Source of the DNA: Chloroflexota bacterium
Lineage (GTDB): Bacteria > Chloroflexota > Anaerolineae > Anaerolineales > DRMV01
Assembly (NCBI GenBank): GCA_011322445.1
Contig: DRMV01000021.1
Location: 1,629-65,628 of the forward strand
Direction: 5' to 3'
Length of the DNA: 64,000 bases
Below, piece by piece: positions 27,232 through 53,094 of this stretch (its first letter is position 1; the number at the start of each line of letters is the position of its first letter). The notes under the pieces were generated by a model, which saw only the letters and a list, made by a program, of their open reading frames with translations, had not been told where the DNA came from and searched no databases. A program made the translations under genes and the position numbers.

Positions 27232-28823
27232 GGTTTCACCGTAGGGCGGCAATACAACGCCCCGATAGCATCGGTAGCGCAAGGGGTGCCACCATTGTGT
27301 TTCAAGAGCGCCTTCCACCATAAGCGGCTGCGGTCGGCGCCCGGTTGCCACAGCAGCACCACAGCGCCGCCGTGCGCCCGCCATTGTATCAGACGCGGGT
27401 TTTTCGTGGAAGCCTCCTCCCATAACATATAGTAGGGCAGTTCGTTCAGCGCAAAGGCTGGTCGTGCCAGCCAGATAAGCACCCCCGGCCAGTTGTTGGA
27501 GTACAGCGGGGTGTCTGCTGGCAGGGCGGCCACATCGTGCAACACGCCTGCGGTCATGCTTTCCTGCCACGGCCTTGCGGTATAGCCTTCCCCAAAATAG
27601 CGCATGGTGAGGAGGGCCTGATGAGCCGCAGAGGCGGGAGATTTCATCCAGCCCAGCAGCACAAGGATGGCAACAGCCGCAGCAATTTGTTGCAGCCGTG
27701 CCCGCTCAGGCCACTTTGCCTGCAACCACGCCGCCAGCGCGGCCAGGCCGCTCACCAGCCACATGGTGAATGCGGGGGTGTACATGCGGAAATCCAGCGC
27801 AGGGGGCGGCGCGATGAAGACGAACATGAAAGCCAGAAAGGGAAACCACGCGAAGGCATCCAGCGCGGCCAGCAAACTCAGCGTGGCTAGAGGGGAAGCC
27901 GACGCTTTGCGCCAGCGCGCGACTGCCACACCCCAGCCCGCGGCCACGGCGATTACGGCAACCCAGAAGGCGACAATAGCCGCCAGCGGCGGATGGAGCC
28001 AGTAGGGGAAAATTGCAGCCAGAAAGGTGTTGCCGGTAAGGTGCAGGAACTGGCCGAAAGCGGGCAGCCATTGGTGGGGGGCTGTCCATCCTCCCGGCGA
28101 CTGCCCTGCCACGCGGCCGTAGACCATCCACGCGCCGAAAGGCAGTAGAAAGATTGCCCCGCTGATAATCGCCCGCCGCAGCCGTGCGCGCCAGGGCCGT
28201 GAAGGCCAAAAGAGCAGCGGCACGAGCACCAGCACAATGCCCGCGTGCAGGCCGGCATAGCGCACGCTCACGCTGAGGGCGGCGATCATGACCGCGGCCC
28301 ACCACCAGGGACTGCTATCTCGCTGCACGCTGCGCCACATGCTATAAAGCCATGCTGCCAGCATGACCAGAAACGGCGGTTCCGACATCAGGCTGGTAAA
28401 CGCTCGCGCCACCGGCAGGCTGGTTGCCAACATCACCATGCCCAACAGTGCCAGGAGCAGGCGGTCGCTGGCTTCGTAAAGCCACCAGCCGACGATGAAC
28501 AAGAACAGCGCCAGGGAAAGCACATCCAGCAGGCGCCCGGCGGCAATCCAGTCGTTGTGGGTGAGGCGCATCGCCTCCGCGATCAGGGTTGGATAGCCCG
28601 GTGGATAGTGCGTGAGCAAGATGACACTGCCGTCGCTTTGGAGGGAAAGCACGCCTTGCCCGGCAAGAATGTGCCGGGCGGCGTCGACGTAGGCCGCGGA
28701 GTCGGTATAGGCCCACGGCCCCCAGGGAGCCAGGGCGTAAGCGTATACCGCGGCGGCAAGGACGGCGGCGGCAAAGATGAGGAACATCGGCAAGCGTTTG
28801 TCGGAGAAAATGAATCGTTGCAT
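27228..28823 (-). CDS. polytopic membrane glycosyltransferase-like protein (GT-C/ArnT-PMT-like)
   Basis: Track ORF 27228..29036 trimmed to ATG 28823 (MQRFIFSDKRLPMFLIF). More than 10 TM helices. Early loop YTDSAAYVDAARHI resembles the acidic first loop of GT-C enzymes. Confidence 0.6.
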   Translation of the reverse strand: MQRFIFSDKRLPMFLIFAAAVLAAAVYAYALAPWGPWAYTDSAAYVDAARHILAGQGVLSLQSDGSVILLTHYPPGYPTLIAEAMRLTHNDWIAAGRLLDVLSLALFLFIVGWWLYEASDRLLLALLGMVMLATSLPVARAFTSLMSEPPFLVMLAAWLYSMWRSVQRDSSPWWWAAVMIAALSVSVRYAGLHAGIVLVLVPLLFWPSRPWRARLRRAIISGAIFLLPFGAWMVYGRVAGQSPGGWTAPHQWLPAFGQFLHLTGNTFLAAIFPYWLHPPLAAIVAFWVAVIAVAAGWGVAVARWRKASASPLATLSLLAALDAFAWFPFLAFMFVFIAPPPALDFRMYTPAFTMWLVSGLAALAAWLQAKWPERARLQQIAAAVAILVLLGWMKSPASAAHQALLTMRYFGEGYTARPWQESMTAGVLHDVAALPADTPLYSNNWPGVLIWLARPAFALNELPYYMLWEEASTKNPRLIQWRAHGGAVVLLWQPGADRSRLWWKALLKHNGGTPCATDAIGALYCRPTVKP

Positions 28824-28829
28824 GGAAGG

Positions 28830-28875
28830 AGTCGGGGAGTCAGATAGTCGGATAGTCGGGGAGTCAGATAGTCGG
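28830..28875 (-). repeat. 22-nt direct repeat (24-nt period) spanning a stop codon and an intercistronic spacer
   Basis: AGTCGGGGAGTCAGATAGTCGG occurs at 28830-28851 and at 28854-28875. The second copy contains the TGA stop (28864-28866) and the last codons of the upstream GT gene. Confidence 0.85.
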
Positions 28876-29976
28876 GGCGAGGCGGCGGTAAAGGGCCAGC
28901 AGGCGCTGGAAGTTCTGCGGCCAGTCGGCGCGGGCTTCGGCGCGGGCTCGGGCTGCCCTTCCGTGGGCTTGCAACGCGGCGGGCGGGGTGTGGGCGGCTT
29001 CCAGCAGGGCTTCGGCGAGGGCGTTGACGCTGCCATCGGAGAACAGCCAGCCTTCCTGCCCGTGGATAACCCATTCGCGGTTGGAAGGAATGTCGGAAAC
29101 CAGCACCGGCAGGCCGCTGGCGAGGGCTTCCATCAGGGAAACCGATGAGCCGTCGCTGTGGGATGCGCTGAGGTAGAGGTCGGCAGCGCGGTAATAGCGC
29201 GGCAGGTCGCGCTGGGAAACCTGCCCAAAGAAGTGCACGCGGTCGAGCAGGCGGGCTTCCTGAAAAATGCGGTGCAGCAGCGGTGCCAGAGACCCGCCGC
29301 CGAGGAGCATCAGCCGCAGGCGGGGTTCCTGCCGCGCGGCCTGCACGAAAGCCCGCGCCATCACATCCACGCCGTAAACCGGCTCCCACGAGCGGTTGTG
29401 GAGCACCACGAAGGCGTCTTCCCAGCCTAAGCGGGCGCGCAGGCCGTCGTCGGGGCCGGGCGAAAAATGTTGTAAATCCACGCCCCAGGGGAAGACCGTG
29501 ACGCGCTCGCGGGGGAAGCCGAAATCGGCGGCGCGGCGGGCGACGGTTTCGCAATCGGCCACTAAGGCGTCGCTGCGGCGGAGCACGAAGCGGGTCAGGC
29601 GGCGGTAAAAGCCGCTACGGTCGGCGTCGCGCAGCAGGTCGGAACCCCACGACATGCTCACGAGGGGGTGAAAGCCCAGCAGCGCGGGGAAGGCAGCCAC
29701 GGTCTGAATTGGCCCGGCGTGGATGAGGTCAGGTTTGACCTGGCGCACCACCCGCCGGAAATCGGCAAACAGCGCCAGGAAATCGCGCCAGCGAAAGGGC
29801 TTTTGCCCGCCCTGCCAGCGGATTTGCCGCACCGGGGGCGGGAGGGGACGGTCTTCGGTCTGCCGCCTGCCGCGTTGCAAGCGCAGGTAAGCCACCTCGT
29901 GCCCGCTTTCGGCGAGGGCGGTCAGAAAGCGGTGGTCGTGGGGGGTGTAGTCGAGGGAGAAGTAGAAGAGGCGCAT
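28864..29976 (-). CDS. glycosyltransferase family 4 (GT-B fold)
   Basis: 370 aa. Motif DGSSVSLMEALASGLPVLVSD (EX7E region). Confidence 0.85.
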   Translation of the reverse strand: MRLFYFSLDYTPHDHRFLTALAESGHEVAYLRLQRGRRQTEDRPLPPPVRQIRWQGGQKPFRWRDFLALFADFRRVVRQVKPDLIHAGPIQTVAAFPALLGFHPLVSMSWGSDLLRDADRSGFYRRLTRFVLRRSDALVADCETVARRAADFGFPRERVTVFPWGVDLQHFSPGPDDGLRARLGWEDAFVVLHNRSWEPVYGVDVMARAFVQAARQEPRLRLMLLGGGSLAPLLHRIFQEARLLDRVHFFGQVSQRDLPRYYRAADLYLSASHSDGSSVSLMEALASGLPVLVSDIPSNREWVIHGQEGWLFSDGSVNALAEALLEAAHTPPAALQAHGRAARARAEARADWPQNFQRLLALYRRLAPTI

Positions 29977-30000
29977 GGGAGGGTTAGGGATGGCCTGAGG

Positions 30001-30145
30001 GGATGCTCGGATGCCCTGTGAAGGGATGCCCGGTGGGGGGATGCCTTGATGCCCCGTGAAGGGATGCTCAGTGAGAGGGTGCCCGGATGCCCAATAAAAA
30101 AGTGCCCGGATGCCCGGTGGGGGGATGCCCGGATGCCCGGTGGGC
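30001..30145. repeat. array of about ten GGATGCCC-type octamer words
   Basis: Plus-strand GGATGCTC GGATGCCC ..GGATGCCC ..GGATGCCT TGATGCCC ..GGATGCTC ..GGTGCCC GGATGCCC ..GTGCCC GGATGCCC ..GGATGCCC GGATGCCC. It fills the spacer between the GT4 start and the stop of the four-helix-bundle gene. Confidence 0.9.
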
Positions 30146-30532
30146 CTAACGGCGGTGGCTTTTTGCCGAGCGGCGGCGGACGGAAGCCAGCAGCCCGCCG
30201 CTTAAGGCTTTGGTCTCTTCCGCAAGGCGGTAGAGCAATTCGAAATTTTCTCGGGAGAGATACCCCGCGTCCAGCGCCACATAAAGCAACGATTGTACCT
30301 CCGCGGCAGAAGCGCGGGCATAGGCCAAAAAGCGGGAAAAATCGCCGTCCGTGCCGCTGTCAAATCCTTCGGCAATATTGCTCATAGCCGAAACGGCAGC
30401 CCGTTGGATCTGGTCGCGCAGGCCAAAGTCGCGGGCAAAGGGTTCCTGTCGTGTGGCGGCGTATACGCTGCTGACCAACTTGCGGGCGCTTTGCCATGCC
30501 CGCAAATCTTCAAACCGCTTCACCAGCGCCAT
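30146..30532 (-). CDS. four-helix-bundle protein (23S rRNA intervening-sequence protein / Avd-like family)
   Basis: 128 aa. FEDLRAWQSARKL...NIAEGF...ARASAAEVQSLL pattern, characteristic of the TIGR02436/PF05635-type family. Confidence 0.85.
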   Translation of the reverse strand: MALVKRFEDLRAWQSARKLVSSVYAATRQEPFARDFGLRDQIQRAAVSAMSNIAEGFDSGTDGDFSRFLAYARASAAEVQSLLYVALDAGYLSRENFELLYRLAEETKALSGGLLASVRRRSAKSHRR

Positions 30533-30548
30533 CGCTCACCTCTCCACC

Positions 30549-30617
30549 GGGCATCAAGGCACCAGGCATCAGGACACAGGGCATCGGGGCACACAGCCTC
30601 AGGGCATCCCCACATCC
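30549..30617. repeat. array of GGGCATC words (reverse complement of the 30001-30145 words)
   Basis: Plus-strand GGGCATCA..GGCATCA..GGGCATCG..GGGCATCC..CACATCC. It overlaps the last codons of the NeuB-family gene (GGG ATG CCC TGA on the minus strand). Confidence 0.85.
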
Positions 30618-31672
30618 ACCCACCGCACCGCATCTCCCTTCGGAATGTCGCGCAGGGCTTTGGTGCCCACCACCGCGTCCATTTCCCACGACTGAATTGC
30701 GCCGATGACGTTCGGGCGGAGCACATCCAGCATGTCGCGGGTGATGGTTTCCCCGGCTTTGATGTCGCGGGCGGCGCGCGCGCAGCGGCGCTGGACGAGG
30801 TAGGTTTCCTTTTCGTTGCCCGCCACGAATTTGTCGCCGGAGCCGAGGGCGCGTTCCAGTTTGCGGGTTTCTTCCACCATCAGCGCCCATTCGTCGGGGT
30901 TGGTGGCAAACTTGTGGTCGGGGCCTTCGCGGTCGTTGTCGTCGGTGAAGTGGCGTTCCACCACGCGAGCGCCCAACGCCACCGCACCCAAAATCACCGC
31001 CAGCCCGCGGGTGTGGTCGGAAATGCCCAGCACGGCATTGGGCCACATCTGGCGGTAGGTTTTCAGCACGTTGAGGTGAATGTGGTCGAAGTTTTCTTCG
31101 CTGGCAGTGTAGTTGGTATTGCACTGCATCAGCACGATCTGGTCGTTGACTTCCTGCACCATGCGCATTGCCCGGGCCACGTCGCTGATATCCGAAGCGC
31201 CGGTAGCCATCATGATGGGCTTGCCCTTCTTCGCCATGTAAACCAGCAGTTCCGGCCACGACATCAGCCCCGAACCCGCTTTGTAAACCGGCACGTAGGG
31301 TTCGATGTGGTCCACCGAGTCGAAATCGTAGGGCGAGGAGAAGAAGTCAATGCCGACCTTGTCGCATTCCTCTTTGAGGTAGGGCGTCCAGTCGCGGGGC
31401 AGGGAAGCCTCTTCGTAGACCTGATAAACCGACTTCTTCCAGGAAGCCTGGTGGGAGAGCTGCTTCCCGAAGGCGCGGAAGCCGTAATCGGAGACGATTT
31501 TGGGGGCGAGGAAGTGCTGGAATTTGGCCGCGTCCGCGCCGGCTTCCTTGGCGAGGCGGATGAGCAGTTTAGCGCGTTCTAAGGAGCCATCGTGGTTGGC
31601 GGCGATGTCGGCAATGAAATAGGTGGGATGGCCGTCGCCAATCAGGCGGTTGCCAATGCGGATTTCGGGCAT
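30599..31672 (-). CDS. NeuB-family nonulosonic/sialic-acid-type synthase with C-terminal SAF domain
   Basis: Track ORF 30599..31777 trimmed to ATG 31672 (GGAGGTG upstream). Motif FIADIAANHDGSLERAKLLIRLAKEAGADAAKFQ. Confidence 0.85.
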   Translation of the reverse strand: MPEIRIGNRLIGDGHPTYFIADIAANHDGSLERAKLLIRLAKEAGADAAKFQHFLAPKIVSDYGFRAFGKQLSHQASWKKSVYQVYEEASLPRDWTPYLKEECDKVGIDFFSSPYDFDSVDHIEPYVPVYKAGSGLMSWPELLVYMAKKGKPIMMATGASDISDVARAMRMVQEVNDQIVLMQCNTNYTASEENFDHIHLNVLKTYRQMWPNAVLGISDHTRGLAVILGAVALGARVVERHFTDDNDREGPDHKFATNPDEWALMVEETRKLERALGSGDKFVAGNEKETYLVQRRCARAARDIKAGETITRDMLDVLRPNVIGAIQSWEMDAVVGTKALRDIPKGDAVRWVDVGMP

Positions 31673-31712
31673 GGGAACACCTCCGGGGTTTTCGTGGGGT
31701 TCTTGCAGGGCG

Positions 31713-32540
31713 TTATGTGCCCCAGTCGCGCAGGTAGAGGAAGTCGTAACCGATGGTGCGGTTGGAAAGTTTGGCAATCGGGGGCATCAGGCGCTTGAAG
31801 TGGTTGCGGCGCATCCGCCGGACGACGGCTTGCACAAAGGCTTCATCGAAGCCCTCTTCGATGCATTCCTGGGGGGTGTAGCGCCGGTCCACCAGCAGGT
31901 AGAGCAGCCGGTCGGCTTCCCGATACGAAAAGCCGAGTTCCTGCTCGTCGGTTTGGCCTGCCCACAGGTCGGCCGTAGGGGCTTTTTTGATGATGACTTC
32001 CGGCACACCGACGGCTTCGGAAAGTTGCCACACCTGCGTTTTGTAAAGGTCGCCGATGGGGTTGATGGCATAGGCCGAATCGCCGTAAAGGGTGGAATAG
32101 CCCAGCAGGATTTCGGTTTTGTTGCTGGTGCCCACGACCAGGCCCCCAAAGGCCGCCGACTGGTCGTAGAGCACCATCATGCGGGCGCGGGCCATCATAT
32201 TGCCGCGGCGGCGCTTATCCATTTCGGGGAAGCGGGCGAAATAAGGCTCCACCATCTCGGTGATGTCGACCGTGAGCGAGCGCACGCCCGTGGCGTCGAT
32301 GACCATTTGGGCGTGTTCCAGCGATTCGCGGGATGAGGTGCGGTAAGGCATCCGCACCGCGAGAACGTTTTCGGGGCCAAGGGCTTCGGCGGCCAGGAAG
32401 CAGGAAAGCGCCGAATCCACGCCGCCGGAAAGCCCCACCACGGCGCGTTTCAGGCCAATGCGGCCGATTTCGCTGCGGATGAAGCCGGTGAGGATGCGGC
32501 GGGCTAAATCGGTGTTGATGGCGAGGTCAATGGGGGGCAT
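31713..32540 (-). CDS. nadE: NAD+ synthetase, single-domain (NadE)
   Basis: 275 aa. PP-loop [10 protein letters not shown] and a typical NadE C-terminal region. Confidence 0.92.
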
Positions 32541-36480: not shown

Positions 36481-36622
36481 GCGTTTCGTGCCGAGCCGCG
36501 CCAAAGCACCTGCGCTGAGCGACGTCGAAGCACCTGCGCTGAGCGATGTCGAAGCGCCTGCGCTGAGCGATGTCGAAGCGCCAGTGCTAAGCGATGCCGA
36601 GGCACGAAACGCGACGAACAGC
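36481..36622. repeat. 24-bp tandem repeat (4 good and 1 degenerate copies) bracketed by a 12-bp inverted repeat
   Basis: Units (G/A)AAGC(A/G)CCTGCGCTGAGCGA(C/T)GTC at 36503, 36527, 36551 and 36575, plus a degenerate unit at 36599. GCGTTTCGTGCC (36481-36492) is the exact reverse complement of GGCACGAAACGC (36601-36612). Confidence 0.9.
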
Positions 36623-50679: not shown

Positions 50680-53094
50680 TTATGCCTCTTCTTCCTCGGA
50701 ATCTGCCTCTGCCATCTCGGCTTCGGCCGCGAGCGCGCGTCGGGCGCGGGCTTCCTTCCAGCCCAGCGCAAGGTTGTAAAGCCCGGCTGCTGCCACCATC
50801 AGAGCGGCGAACAGCACCACGTAACTGTAACTGCTCCACTGGCCGCGCAGCGGTGCCTCGGGCTGCTGCCCTCGGGCGGCGCTGTAAGCCAGGCTGCCTG
50901 CCATGCCGGTAACCACCCCTGCTACCTGATGAGAGGCGGTTTCGTAATAAGGCTCGATCATCGGTTCGGCCTGCGCACTGATGAGCGCGATGAGCGGTGT
51001 GTGAGCGCCTAAGGTAGGGCGCACTTGCTCAATCCAGGCGCGTGCCGTGTCGGCGTCTTCGGTGATGACGACGACCATCGCGAAGTTGTCCATCTGGTGG
51101 ACGGTGTTCAGGAAGGGCGTTTCCCACAGCCGGGTGTGCCCGGCGGCGTGGGTGAAGACCAGACGGGGGTTTTGGGCAAAGGCGAACAGCCCCGCCGTGC
51201 CGCCCGGCAGGTAGCCCAGGTTGAGGTATTGCTGGCCTTCCTGGGCGTTTAGCCCCTGCCGGAAGAGGCGCGTGGCCAGCGCCGGCCCGGTGGGCTGGGT
51301 GGAAACCACGGTCAGCCGGGCGCCTTTGGCTAAGAGGTCGCGCAGCAGGGGTGCGGCGGTGGTTTCCATTTCGGCGGCGAAAGCGGGGGAGTAGTCTACC
51401 CCCACGAGCACTGGCGCGCCTTGGGGCACGGTGTCAACCGCTTGCAGGGCCGCGCGCGCCGCGGGAAGGATGCGGTCGGGGGGCGGGGCCTGCAAGGGGG
51501 GCAAAACCAAGGGCAGGAAGGCCATTACCAGCAGCACCACCCCAATGAACCACCGCAGGGCACGCTGCCGACTGAGCGTGGGGGGCTTCTTGGGCTCGCG
51601 GGGGGCAAATTCTTCTGCCAGCAGCGCCTGCAGGGTTTTCGCCTGCGCTTCCTGTTGGTCGGTGAGGAACAGTTTGCCGCCGATGGTGGCTACCCGGCCG
51701 GGTTTGACCAGCGTCGGTTCCGGCGGGGTGATCACCCCTCGCAGCCCTGCCAGCGGCCCCTCGGTTTCGATCGCTTCGTCTTCCCCTGCGCCGCCGACCG
51801 AGGTGGCCGCAATGGGGCGCATGGCCTCTAACCAGGAAGGCAGTTCGCCTGCCGTCAGCGCGCCCGACGGCTCGCCTTCTTCGGCCGTGGCCGGTTTCTC
51901 CTGGGCTTCGCCGGTGGGTTCTTCGTCGGGGGAAAGCAGCGCCAGCCAGTCGGGCGTTTCTTGCAGCAGGTCTTCTGGCAGTTCGGCGTCGGCCACGAAG
52001 GGTTGTGGCGTTGGCTGGACTGGAGCAGGTTCGGCTTCGGCCTCGGGCTGGGGTTCGCCCGCGAGCCAATCTGGCAGGCCTGTGGCTTCCTCGGCGGCGG
52101 GGGTTTCTTCGGCCGGGGTTGCCTCGCCCGCGAGCCAGTCGGGGAGTTCGGCCTCGTCGGCGGGGAGGGGCGAGGCGGGTTCGGCTTCGGCCTCGGGCTG
52201 GGGTTCGCCCGCGAGCCAATCTGGCAGGCCTGTGGCTTCTTCGGCGGCGGGTGCCTCTTCGGCGGGGGCTTCCTCGCCCGCGAGCCAGTCGGGGAGTTCG
52301 GCCTCGTCGGCGGGGAGGGGCGAGGCAGGTTCGGCTTCGGCCTCGGGCTGGGGTTCGCCCGCGAGCCAATCGGGCAGGCCTGTGGCTTCCTCGGCGGCGG
52401 GGGGGGCCTCGGCCGGGGTTGCCTCGCCCGCGAGCCAGTCGGGGAGTTCGGCCTCGTCGGCGGCGAGGGGCGGGGCGGGTTCGGCTTCGGCCTCGGGCTG
52501 GGGTTCGCCCGCGAGCCAATCGGGCAGGCTTGCAGCTTCCTCGGCGGCGGGGGTTTCCTCGGCCGGGGTTGCCTCGCCCGCGAGCCAGTCGGGGAGTTCG
52601 GCCTCGTCGGCGGGGAGGGGCGAGGCGGGTTCGGCTTCCGCCTCGGGCTGGGGCGCGGGCGGCGGCGTTTCGGCAGGCGGTGCTTCGGCTTCCGGCGCGG
52701 CCGGGGCGCTTTCCGCGGCCTCGTTGGCTTCGCCCCCTAACGATTTCAACCAGTCGGGCAGGTCTTCCTCTTCTTCGTCGGGTGCCCACAGCAGGCCGTC
52801 TTCGGCGGGTTCCTCTTCTTCAGGGGGCAGAGGTTTTTCCGCGGGTTCGGCCCCTGCCGTCAGGTCCAGCGGCAGCTCGCCGGTTTCGGGCAGGGCGTCG
52901 GGGGTGGCGTTTTCCCGCAGGTTTTGCATCCACGGTGGCAGGGTACCTTCCAGTTCAGCCGTGGATTTGGGTTGAGGGGCTTCCCCCGGCCGAAGGGGTT
53001 TGAGACGCGCGTGGCAATAGCGGCAGATTTCGGCGTCTGCCGGGTTGGGCTTACCACACATTGGGCAACGGATCTGGTCGCTCATGTCATTCAC
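50680..53094 (-). CDS. zinc-ribbon / acidic PDWL-repeat / membrane-anchored domain protein, uncharacterised
   Basis: 804 aa. N-terminal zinc ribbon CPMCG...CRYCH, about 250 aa of acidic 50-aa repeats (LPDWLAGEPQPEAEAEPASPLPADEAELPDWLAGEATPAEETPAAEEATG), one TM helix, an alpha/beta-looking domain of about 250 aa, a second TM helix, and an acidic tail. Confidence 0.65.
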   Translation of the reverse strand: MNDMSDQIRCPMCGKPNPADAEICRYCHARLKPLRPGEAPQPKSTAELEGTLPPWMQNLRENATPDALPETGELPLDLTAGAEPAEKPLPPEEEEPAEDGLLWAPDEEEEDLPDWLKSLGGEANEAAESAPAAPEAEAPPAETPPPAPQPEAEAEPASPLPADEAELPDWLAGEATPAEETPAAEEAASLPDWLAGEPQPEAEAEPAPPLAADEAELPDWLAGEATPAEAPPAAEEATGLPDWLAGEPQPEAEAEPASPLPADEAELPDWLAGEEAPAEEAPAAEEATGLPDWLAGEPQPEAEAEPASPLPADEAELPDWLAGEATPAEETPAAEEATGLPDWLAGEPQPEAEAEPAPVQPTPQPFVADAELPEDLLQETPDWLALLSPDEEPTGEAQEKPATAEEGEPSGALTAGELPSWLEAMRPIAATSVGGAGEDEAIETEGPLAGLRGVITPPEPTLVKPGRVATIGGKLFLTDQQEAQAKTLQALLAEEFAPREPKKPPTLSRQRALRWFIGVVLLVMAFLPLVLPPLQAPPPDRILPAARAALQAVDTVPQGAPVLVGVDYSPAFAAEMETTAAPLLRDLLAKGARLTVVSTQPTGPALATRLFRQGLNAQEGQQYLNLGYLPGGTAGLFAFAQNPRLVFTHAAGHTRLWETPFLNTVHQMDNFAMVVVITEDADTARAWIEQVRPTLGAHTPLIALISAQAEPMIEPYYETASHQVAGVVTGMAGSLAYSAARGQQPEAPLRGQWSSYSYVVLFAALMVAAAGLYNLALGWKEARARRALAAEAEMAEADSEEEEA
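52028..52660 (-). repeat. 150-bp in-frame tandem repeat, about 4.2 copies
   Basis: GGTTCGGCTTCGGCCTCGGGCTGGGGTTCGCCCGCGAGCCAATC recurs at 52028, 52178, 52328, 52478 and (partially) 52628. The copies are near-identical. Confidence 0.92.

Follow-up and report, generated by a model that had tools for sequence, protein, structure and literature searches.

Why should a gene for a small helical protein, bracketed by inverted arrays of a short word, stand between two sugar-pathway genes? The question arises in a 64,000-nt stretch of a Chloroflexota genome (assembly GCA_011322445.1, contig DRMV01000021.1, positions 1,629 to 65,628 of the forward strand; this whole stretch, numbered from its first letter, is hereafter the window), in which a 128-aa four-helix-bundle protein is encoded on the minus strand (30146–30532), downstream of a gene for a NeuB-family sugar-phosphate synthase and upstream of one for a family-4 glycosyltransferase (GT4). 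The gene and both word arrays form one cassette, which extends from two codons before the stop codon of the upstream gene to ~3 nt before the downstream gene's first codon. The element is best filed as a hairpin-bounded cassette of the intervening sequence (IVS) type that lives in operon spacers and is widespread and swappable. On balance, we favour the view that this IVS-type cassette is looped out of the host transcript and excised by RNase III, an interpretation that we consider somewhat probable.

The arrays are evident from how often their words recur. Across the window, 11 exact copies of the octamer GGATGCCC are counted where 4.4 ± 2.1 would be expected; six of them are on the plus strand in 30009–30138 and one is on the minus strand at 30602–30609, where it covers the NeuB-family gene's final codons and stop. 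The first-pass annotation, made from the sequence alone, had put about ten words of this type in the 3′ spacer; six are exact octamers, and the figure of ten holds for GATGC-type variants. The hexamer core GATGCC is found eight times on the plus strand in 30010–30137 and four times on the minus strand in 30550–30608 (at 30550, 30565, 30580 and 30603), and the pentamer GATGC ten times in the 3′ flank and five times in the 5′ flank (in gene sense), in keeping with the four to five reverse-complement words annotated in the 5′ spacer. Tandem Repeats Finder (TRF) delineates one array at 29996–30142, with periods of 8, 15, 23 and 38, and another at 30545–30606, with a period of 15 and 4.1 copies. 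From these data, the 5′ arm (30546–30607, minus strand; TRF and GATGCC positions) comprises four to five GATGCC/GGTGCC-type words with a period of ~15 (7 + 8), whereas the 3′ arm (29980–30145, minus strand; TRF, GATGCC counts and the fold) comprises about ten GGGCAUC-type words in gene sense, with periods of 8, 15 and 23, and spans from the stop codon of the cassette gene to 3 nt short of the GT4 start codon. Between the 5′ arm and the gene, a short spacer (30533–30545, minus strand) contains what reads as the cassette's own Shine–Dalgarno-like sequence, GGAGAGGUGAGCG, immediately 5′ of the ATG. The first arm is G-rich and the second C-rich, both being composed of tandem 7–8-nt words in inverted orientation, and gapless inverted matches between the flanks extend over 51 nt (71% complementary), 42 nt (74%) and 35 nt (77%). 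Counts, TRF and inverted matches thus agree on a gene flanked by inverted arrays, with GATGCC-type words 3′ and their reverse complement 5′, and these arrays are the sole repeats close to it.

The flanks had been expected to form a long imperfect stem enclosing the ORF (open reading frame), and the computed fold conforms to this expectation. For the minus-strand RNA 29977–30625, the minimum free energy is −301.7 kcal/mol, compared with −266.3 ± 6.7 for shuffled controls (z = −5.3), and the predicted structure contains 67 bp between the 5′ and 3′ flanks, only four of them G·U, amounting to a closing stem of the IVS kind. The outermost pair is 30624:29978 and the innermost 30539:30063; on average, a base of the 5′ flank pairs with the 3′ flank at a probability of 0.70. 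At its base, the predicted stem takes in the last eight codons of the NeuB-family gene and ends 2 nt from the GT4 ATG, and GGAGAGGUGAGCG lies at its inner end, partly paired.

Around relatives of the gene, the same layout recurs across many phyla, and one true 23S rRNA IVS, to which we return below, shares it. The sample of relatives consisted of 80 loci encoding proteins of 48–78% identity, from Chloroflexota, Verrucomicrobiota, Acidobacteriota, Pseudomonadota, Desulfobacterota, Planctomycetota, Bacteroidota, Nitrospirota and other phyla. In 74 of these, one 5-mer is present two or more times just upstream of the gene, with two or more copies of its reverse complement just downstream. None of the three refuting conditions set in the first-pass annotation applies, be it a fold no better than shuffled controls, other copies in the genome lacking complementary flanks or relatives with the gene but no arrays. 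Words are spaced by 7 nt (195 cases), 8 nt (62), 9 nt (16) or multiples thereof, mostly with three to four units per arm. The 120-nt flanks have a median of eight inverted 7-mers in common, and at least three in 81% of loci, as opposed to a median of one (at least three in 19%) at offsets of 500–1700 nt and a median of zero (15%) for swapped partners. Arrays reach a density of 4.4 per kb within 200 nt of the genes versus 0.32 per kb elsewhere in the same loci. The words are specific to the locus (e.g., GTGTCAC/GTGACAC, GAGTCCT/AGGACTC, AGTTGCG/CGCAACT and GGTTTCT/AGAAACC). Other copies in one genome likewise have complementary flanks: contig L014 holds two cassettes, one with GATGCC words at the NeuB/GT4 junction and the other with GTTGCT upstream and AGCAAC downstream. 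Distant copies (29–47% identity) on plasmids of Nostoc, Aulosira, Pseudanabaena, Picosynechococcus, Geminocystis and Riemerella have the same layout, and two of them reside in cas operons, between cas6 and cas4 in Pseudanabaena (L179) and between cmr2 and cmr3 in Picosynechococcus (L183).

These figures bear directly on the suggestion that the arrays arose neutrally, through replication slippage at simple repeats of the heptamer type or as repeats capable of forming G-quadruplexes, and happen to lie beside the gene. Copy number is indeed variable among strains, and heptameric repeats have been reported to be over-represented in bacteria, the G-rich ones forming quadruplexes in vitro (PMC4692102). 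However, chance would hardly place the same word in inverted orientation around the gene in 74 of 80 loci, enrich arrays ~13-fold beside the genes or keep words unchanged across phyla at 60–80% protein identity, and the offset, swapped-partner and array-density controls all contradict a neutral origin, which we regard as very improbable. The G-quadruplex explanation as such was rejected, most words having no G-tracts by inspection.

The cassettes are aligned with the operons in which they reside. Among confidently called neighbours, 58 of 59 upstream genes and 51 of 57 downstream genes are co-directional with the cassette gene, and the median distance from the upstream stop codon to the beginning of the first word is 2 nt; how far the last word lies from the downstream start was dropped as evidence, the measure being too noisy because of ambiguous start codons. 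An exception is plasmid pNe_5 of Nostoc edaphicum (L178), where the cassette separates nrdB from nrdA and is encoded on the strand opposite to them, with the words AGTAGGG/AGTGGGG upstream and CCCTACT downstream, G-rich heptamers that resemble cyanobacterial repeats studied as quadruplex formers. Several flanks are more complex. The downstream flank also contains the word in direct orientation in L077, L079 and L090 (11–43 shared direct 7-mers) and in L084 (10), and in L077, L084 and L090 inverted copies come after the direct words, giving the impression of a second, empty hairpin next to the cassette. At L032 (3935–4385), a decayed family member with an in-frame stop still lies between AAGGTTA and TAACCTT arrays, so the arms can outlast the ORF. 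Inverted-word hairpins without an ORF are present in intergenic spacers of L017 (250–350), L025 (4760–4870 and 5920–6010) and L036 (2140–2270), the last of these belonging to Thiohalocapsa marina, in which the empty hairpin and two nearby cassettes use a single, GCGAGT-type word family.

Both arms of a cassette share one word, and this word changes from clade to clade. Words are shared by 68% of pairs of loci whose proteins are at least 70% identical, by 20% at 60–70% identity and by 2–3% below 55%, and clades defined by word plus protein span phyla and gene contexts, GAGGACT being found in Desulfobacterota, Acidobacteriota and Chloroflexota. In the first-pass annotation, the arrangement was read as if the end of the NeuB-family gene had seeded the array or served as its target. 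This proposal does not survive: words track the protein clade across unrelated gene contexts, and the final codons of NeuB vary with the cassette (GGG ATG CCC TGA versus GGG CGG TGA), the dependence running in the opposite direction, with the cassette itself supplying the last codons and stop of NeuB. Despite their diversity, 29 distinct heptamers aligned by rotation yield the consensus C-Y-G-A-G-T-T, with the core A, G and T present in 23, 27 and 25 of the 29, respectively, and a logo of 5.36 bits compared with 3.62 ± 0.12 for composition-matched random words. Clade-specific words with a GAGT-like core are probably recognized by a sequence-specific factor; since the words co-vary with the protein, it is probably the encoded protein that recognizes them. 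The GC skew of the first arm is positive in 52 loci and not in 15. Single arms fold weakly (−0.15 and −0.07 kcal/nt), compared with −1.34 kcal/nt for the inter-arm duplex. The idea that a heptamer period puts stop codons in all three frames was rejected, since only some words contain TGA, TAG or TAA by inspection.

The NeuB/GT4 junction shows how such a cassette comes and goes. A NeuB protein scan gave 80 metagenomic loci, and junctions were scored where NeuB and GT4 orthologues are adjacent. They take four forms: a spacer of 3–17 nt (L098, L101 and L102); a plain GC hairpin (L105, L111 and L113); an ORF-less inverted-word hairpin of 50–80 nt (L109 with CGTAA.../...TTACG, L108 with GGTAAT/ATTACC, L099 and L107 with AGGTTG/CAACCT, and L106); and the full cassette (L103 and L104). 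This sporadic presence at a conserved site, with ORF-less versions, is the distribution seen for IVSs. An identical protein is encoded on ten other contigs from metagenomes or metagenome-assembled genomes (MAGs), with gene order kept and the NeuB-family protein likewise called as 357 aa in other assemblies; the 3′ spacer among these contigs is 170, 139 or 78 nt long and the 5′ spacer 66, 81 or 60 nt, so the arrays grow and shrink by whole words. Across 13 syntenic NeuB–cassette–GT4 loci, the identity of the cassette protein rises with the identity of NeuB (rho 0.72) and of GT4 (rho 0.65); hence, the cassette is often inherited vertically while the word of both arms changes.

Replacement occurs as well. 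A population with a 97%-identical GT4 and a near-identical NeuB C-terminus holds in the same slot a ~62%-identical protein (our P0094 clade), with the words CGGTGAA/CAGTGCA upstream and GAACACT/GAGCACT downstream. Comparison of the two cassettes places the left boundary between 30608 and 30607, where NeuB reads GGG|ATG CCC TGA in one and GGG|CGG TGA in the other, and the right boundary ~3 nt short of the GT4 ATG. The last two codons and the TGA stop of NeuB (30599–30607), which are also the outermost word of the 5′ arm, thus fall inside the cassette and are supplied by it. At a fixed slot, cassettes accordingly appear, disappear, shrink to hairpins without an ORF or give way to other cassettes, and the unit annotated as a cassette from its layout behaves as one at orthologous junctions and in the swap. 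The swap came to light through one N-filled scaffold join: in the MAG scaffolds GCA_027041885.1 and GCA_027023625.1 (L003, 3794–3843, and L004), strain-variant pieces are joined across runs of N exactly at the cassette locus, indicating that assemblies break at the arrays. In L112 (3559–4722), a 5′ GGTAAT word array is followed by ~1.1 kb of unrelated sequence with a 49-codon fragment of a GT4 N-terminus and then by an intact GT4, a layout that points to a rearrangement at the slot.

Might the hairpin be a device of the host that couples translation or stability of the downstream message to the upstream gene, the enclosed gene being incidental cargo? The geometry is suggestive, the predicted stem ending so close to the GT4 start and enclosing the last eight codons of NeuB, and GT4 has no Shine–Dalgarno sequence of its own in the window; relatives, moreover, have ORF-less word hairpins at this very junction. 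Yet the operon evidently needs no hairpin, given that some orthologous junctions consist of 3–17 nt only, the cassette type recurs in unrelated operons (cas, acc, restriction-modification-like and rRNA), and the words move with the protein rather than with the host genes. We therefore regard a host regulatory device as improbable.

What, then, would the cassette do in its operon? It has its own ribosome-binding site but no promoter or terminator of its own, and the search for sigma-70-like promoters and intrinsic terminators in 28700–31900 found neither. Under the RNA-level model, the cassette would be transcribed by read-through from the host operon, and its arms would pair in the transcript into an imperfect duplex of ~67 bp with the ORF looped out, so that only a few nucleotides would separate the stop of NeuB from the start of GT4. 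The duplex would be an expected substrate of RNase III, as in the homologous rRNA IVSs, and its cleavage would release the cassette RNA from the host transcript. A sequence-specific factor, for which the encoded basic protein is the likeliest candidate, would read the words. Whereas the anatomy, the distribution, the co-variation of the two arms, presence or absence and swapping are directly observed, the looping of the transcript, its cleavage by RNase III, recognition of the words by the protein and the mode of movement are inferred.

A number of points weigh against this model. Pairing and cleavage in the NeuB/GT4 operon are predictions, and we know of no catalytic or nucleic-acid-binding activity of the stand-alone protein. 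The arms are unequal, the 3′ array of ~150 nt exceeding the 5′ array of ~70 nt, such that the outer half pairs and ~80 nt of inner 3′ words remain without a partner. Mismatches between arms show no excess of the G·U type (82 G·U versus 77 A·C in the sense RNA), and duplex stability is not strand-specific, the sense duplex being the more stable in 35 loci and the antisense one in 40, so that selection on pairing within one transcript is not demonstrated. Pairing alone, furthermore, needs neither a conserved word core nor a tandem organization; together with the missing G·U and strand signatures, these features indicate that the identity of the word is itself constrained, and not complementarity alone. 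A few copies, such as that between nrdB and nrdA of N. edaphicum, are antisense to their neighbours. No target-site duplication is apparent by eye at the swap-defined boundaries or in comparison with empty NeuB/GT4 sites, and the called genes within 10 kb include no recombinase or reverse-transcriptase family. Finally, the S23p protein of the Coxiella IVS is probably not made, according to the study that characterized it (PMC4990558).

The constraint on word identity leaves room for an explanation at the DNA level, in which the protein binds the same word at both ends. The arrays would then be binding sites in double- or single-stranded DNA, like the inverted sub-terminal repeats of transposons or the REPINs (repetitive extragenic palindromic doublets forming hairpins) around the gene for a REP-associated tyrosine transposase (RAYT), and the protein a trans-acting factor that maintains or spreads arrays of its own word, with RNA complementarity as a by-product. 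Such an element would account for the balance between sense and antisense duplexes, the lack of G·U bias, and a conserved word core that follows the protein clade. ORF-less hairpins and solo arrays would also be at home here, including one in the window (28828–28877), as would the single word family of the Thiohalocapsa hairpin and cassettes (L036) and the 186 GGGAATC arrays of Xanthomonas campestris, among which convergent pairs were recorded in 70 cases and one array lies directly 5′ of XCC0516 (Rehm et al., 2015; PMC4692102). By contrast, an element acting on DNA only, its ends being symmetric, would have no need of an orientation so tightly coupled to the operon, nuclease or recombinase features are not known in the protein, the compared junctions show no target-site duplication by eye, cassettes within one genome use different words, and the homologous rRNA IVSs act experimentally at the RNA level (PMC4990558). 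The operon-tied orientation, the lack of a promoter of its own and the RNA-level behaviour of rRNA IVSs disfavour a purely DNA-level element, which we consider unlikely. RNA loop-out with RNase III excision is therefore ranked first and action on DNA second.

The encoded protein belongs to a well-delimited family: it matches Pfam PF05635 (23S_rRNA_IVP; E = 4e-32, 110.9 bits versus a cut-off of 33.8) and TIGR02436 ('four helix bundle protein'; 99.1 bits versus a cut-off of 24), and is also matched by the sequence of Protein Data Bank (PDB) entry 2GSC (E = 2e-15). The AlphaFold2 model (predicted local distance difference test score of 92) consists of four long helices in a four-helix bundle, for which the best Foldseek match is Xcc0516 (2GSC; target-normalized template modelling (TM) score 0.85–0.87, root-mean-square deviation 1.5–1.7 Å), along with BT_0352 (2RLD; target-normalized TM score 0.83–0.89), followed by Avd (4DWL) and the Avd chains of the diversity-generating retroelement (DGR) ribonucleoprotein 8UB7. 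Residues R44, S48, N52 and E55, invariant in an alignment of 25 sequences, form the polar motif of helix 2, R-x3-S-x3-N-x2-E, which has been reported as GxxRxxxSxxxNxxE (PMC3936711); in the subfamily of the cassette protein, the reported G is Q41. The protein is Avd-like and basic, with an Arg/Lys-rich C-terminal tail: the median isoelectric point of the family is 9.0, and the last 15 residues carry a net charge of +3. By analogy with Xcc0516 and BT_0352, each of which was deposited with five chains, and with Avd, it is probably pentameric. A survey of HEPN domains (PMC3710099) makes no mention of the PF05635 family, and we accordingly make no HEPN claim.

Around the cassette lie its two host genes. 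The NeuB-family gene (30599–31672, minus strand) encodes 357 aa with a sugar-phosphate synthase domain (PF03102) and a SAF domain (PF08666), the GT4 gene (28864–29976, minus strand; Pfam) encodes 370 aa, and all three genes, the cassette gene between the two sugar-pathway genes, are co-directional on the minus strand. Over the window, Rfam at gathering threshold yields two tRNAs only, with no rRNA or other known RNA family, and a PADLOC scan for defence systems gives no match. Downstream of GT4, in minus-strand sense, 28828–28877 is a solo direct array of the 8-nt words CCCGACTAT / CTGACTCC, which runs from the GT4 stop to the next gene, overlapping the last GT4 codons and ending 6 nt short of the ATG of a 531-aa membrane-protein gene. 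This array is of the C-rich, '3′-arm' type with no inverted partner nearby, and may be the remnant of a lost cassette or a solitary array as in Xanthomonas. Two further repeats lie elsewhere in the window. A 24-nt unit, AAGCACCTGCGCTGAGCGATGTCG, is present in 4.2 copies with 89% identity at 36504–36605, in the ~240-nt spacer between convergent alpha/beta hydrolase and Ham1-like genes, and a 150-nt unit in 4.2 copies with 93% identity at 52028–52653, within a minus-strand ORF (50680–53094, 804 aa), is presumably a repeated protein segment.

The cassettes suggest a common frame for three sets of observations. ORF-carrying IVSs of 23S rRNA have been known since the 1990s, their function and origin being unclear. 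The present results would unite them with the operon-scattered family annotated as 'four helix bundle / S23 ribosomal protein' and with the excess of intergenic heptamers. A possible, if tentative, extension is that stand-alone Avd-like proteins are the missing trans-acting partners of intergenic heptamer-type arrays, such as the GGGAATC arrays of Xanthomonas and the STRR-like (short tandemly repeated repetitive) arrays of cyanobacteria, each clade having its own word; the array-flanked gene would then be the autonomous form, and ORF-less hairpins and solo arrays its non-autonomous derivatives. If so, they would represent a new class of mobile or self-maintaining elements of operon spacers and rRNA helices, rendered harmless through looping-out of the RNA. 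Since cassettes insert in the spacers of co-directional genes, copies in polysaccharide and acc operons, as well as the reported associations with cas genes (PMC3936711), are explicable as insertion and need not be functional. For the published associations of 23S_rRNA_IVP genes with cas loci, in which family members have been considered possible cas-associated genes (PMC3936711; PMC10910872), the cause may thus be that cassettes entered the spacers of these operons, and not a functional tie. Annotators should also note that an upstream gene can owe its final codons and stop to a cassette. The nucleotide-precise boundaries and the natural swap enable direct experiments, including on the testable idea that Avd-like proteins may read short nucleic-acid words.

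How does the cassette compare with known systems? In the literature, as covered by full texts with subscription-only papers outside, we found neither inverted word arrays described as a general feature of the family nor its operon copies identified as IVSs. The likeness to Avd of DGRs lies in the basic character and the four-helix-bundle fold (Foldseek TM scores of ~0.70–0.72, query-normalized, and ~0.78–0.84, target-normalized), five Avd chains being assembled with reverse transcriptase and structured RNA in 8UB7. Sequence identity, however, is 14–16%, no reverse-transcriptase family is found among the called genes within 10 kb on either side and no template/variable repeat pair is seen, and the cassette was accordingly rejected as a DGR. 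The cassette resembles REPIN/RAYT systems and MITEs (miniature transposable elements with inverted repeats) in architecture only: a protein gene lies between inverted short repeats, and the repeat is also found as many ORF-less intergenic hairpins. The cassette differs from both in having neither a Y1 nor any known transposase and in arms that are tandem word arrays rather than a unique palindrome; its sole ORF encodes the 128-aa helical protein, and the target-site duplication that marks transposons and MITEs is not apparent by eye. The TAACTGA repeats of Beggiatoaceae (PMC4679880), one fixed word in direct repeats upstream of start codons and unlinked to the four-helix-bundle gene, were set apart as a different phenomenon.

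Closer are the intergenic heptamer arrays. The cyanobacterial STRR heptamers are similar intergenic repeat arrays. The GGGAATC arrays of X. campestris, for which four units are preferred, lie between co-directional ORFs with the G-rich strand just past stop codons, and their function was left open (PMC4692102). These and the GGGGA(C/T)T arrays of Nostoc resemble the cassette arms in their tandem 7-nt units, of which ~3–4 are preferred, variable copy number, co-directional ORFs and G-rich copies after stop and C-rich copies before start codons, often as convergent pairs, and the arrays described here share 7-nt-class units, variable copy number, co-directional neighbours and convergent pairing with them. 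They differ in having been studied as quadruplex-forming simple repeats unlinked to a four-helix-bundle gene or to IVSs, whereas the cassette word varies and is mostly not rich in G-tracts. According to the supplementary table of the Xanthomonas study, array 15 lies between bccP (XCC0517) and XCC0516 and overlaps the annotated XCC0516 start (PMC4692102); XCC0516 is the crystallized member of the family (2GSC), a connection which that study does not make.

The closest counterparts are the ORF-containing 23S rRNA IVSs of Leptospira, Coxiella burnetii and some Alphaproteobacteria. These interrupt helix 9, 25 or 45 of 23S rRNA, whereas the cassette stands between protein genes of an operon, and excision by RNase III, predicted for the cassette, has been shown for them. 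In Coxiella, the IVS has terminal inverted repeats forming a 28-bp stem, three tandem GACAGAT heptamers, variable in copy number among strains, precede the S23p ORF, and RNase III cleaves where the first heptamer repeat begins (PMC4990558). The two kinds of element have in common a homologous ORF, complementary ends that form a stem, a sporadic distribution and ORF-less versions, in addition to the tandem heptamers at the 5′ end in Coxiella and the inverted word arms in Azospirillum. The likeness to rRNA IVSs drawn in the first-pass annotation is most direct in this last case: on the AZO_p2 plasmid of Azospirillum lipoferum (L182), a homologous ORF is found within a 23S rRNA gene (Rfam LSU_rRNA_bacteria, 1089 bits), and the words flanking it are CAGAGGA/CGGAGGA on one side and TCCGTCC/TCTGTCT on the opposite side. 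Since this ORF sits between inverted word arrays, a true 23S rRNA IVS has the very architecture of the operon cassettes.

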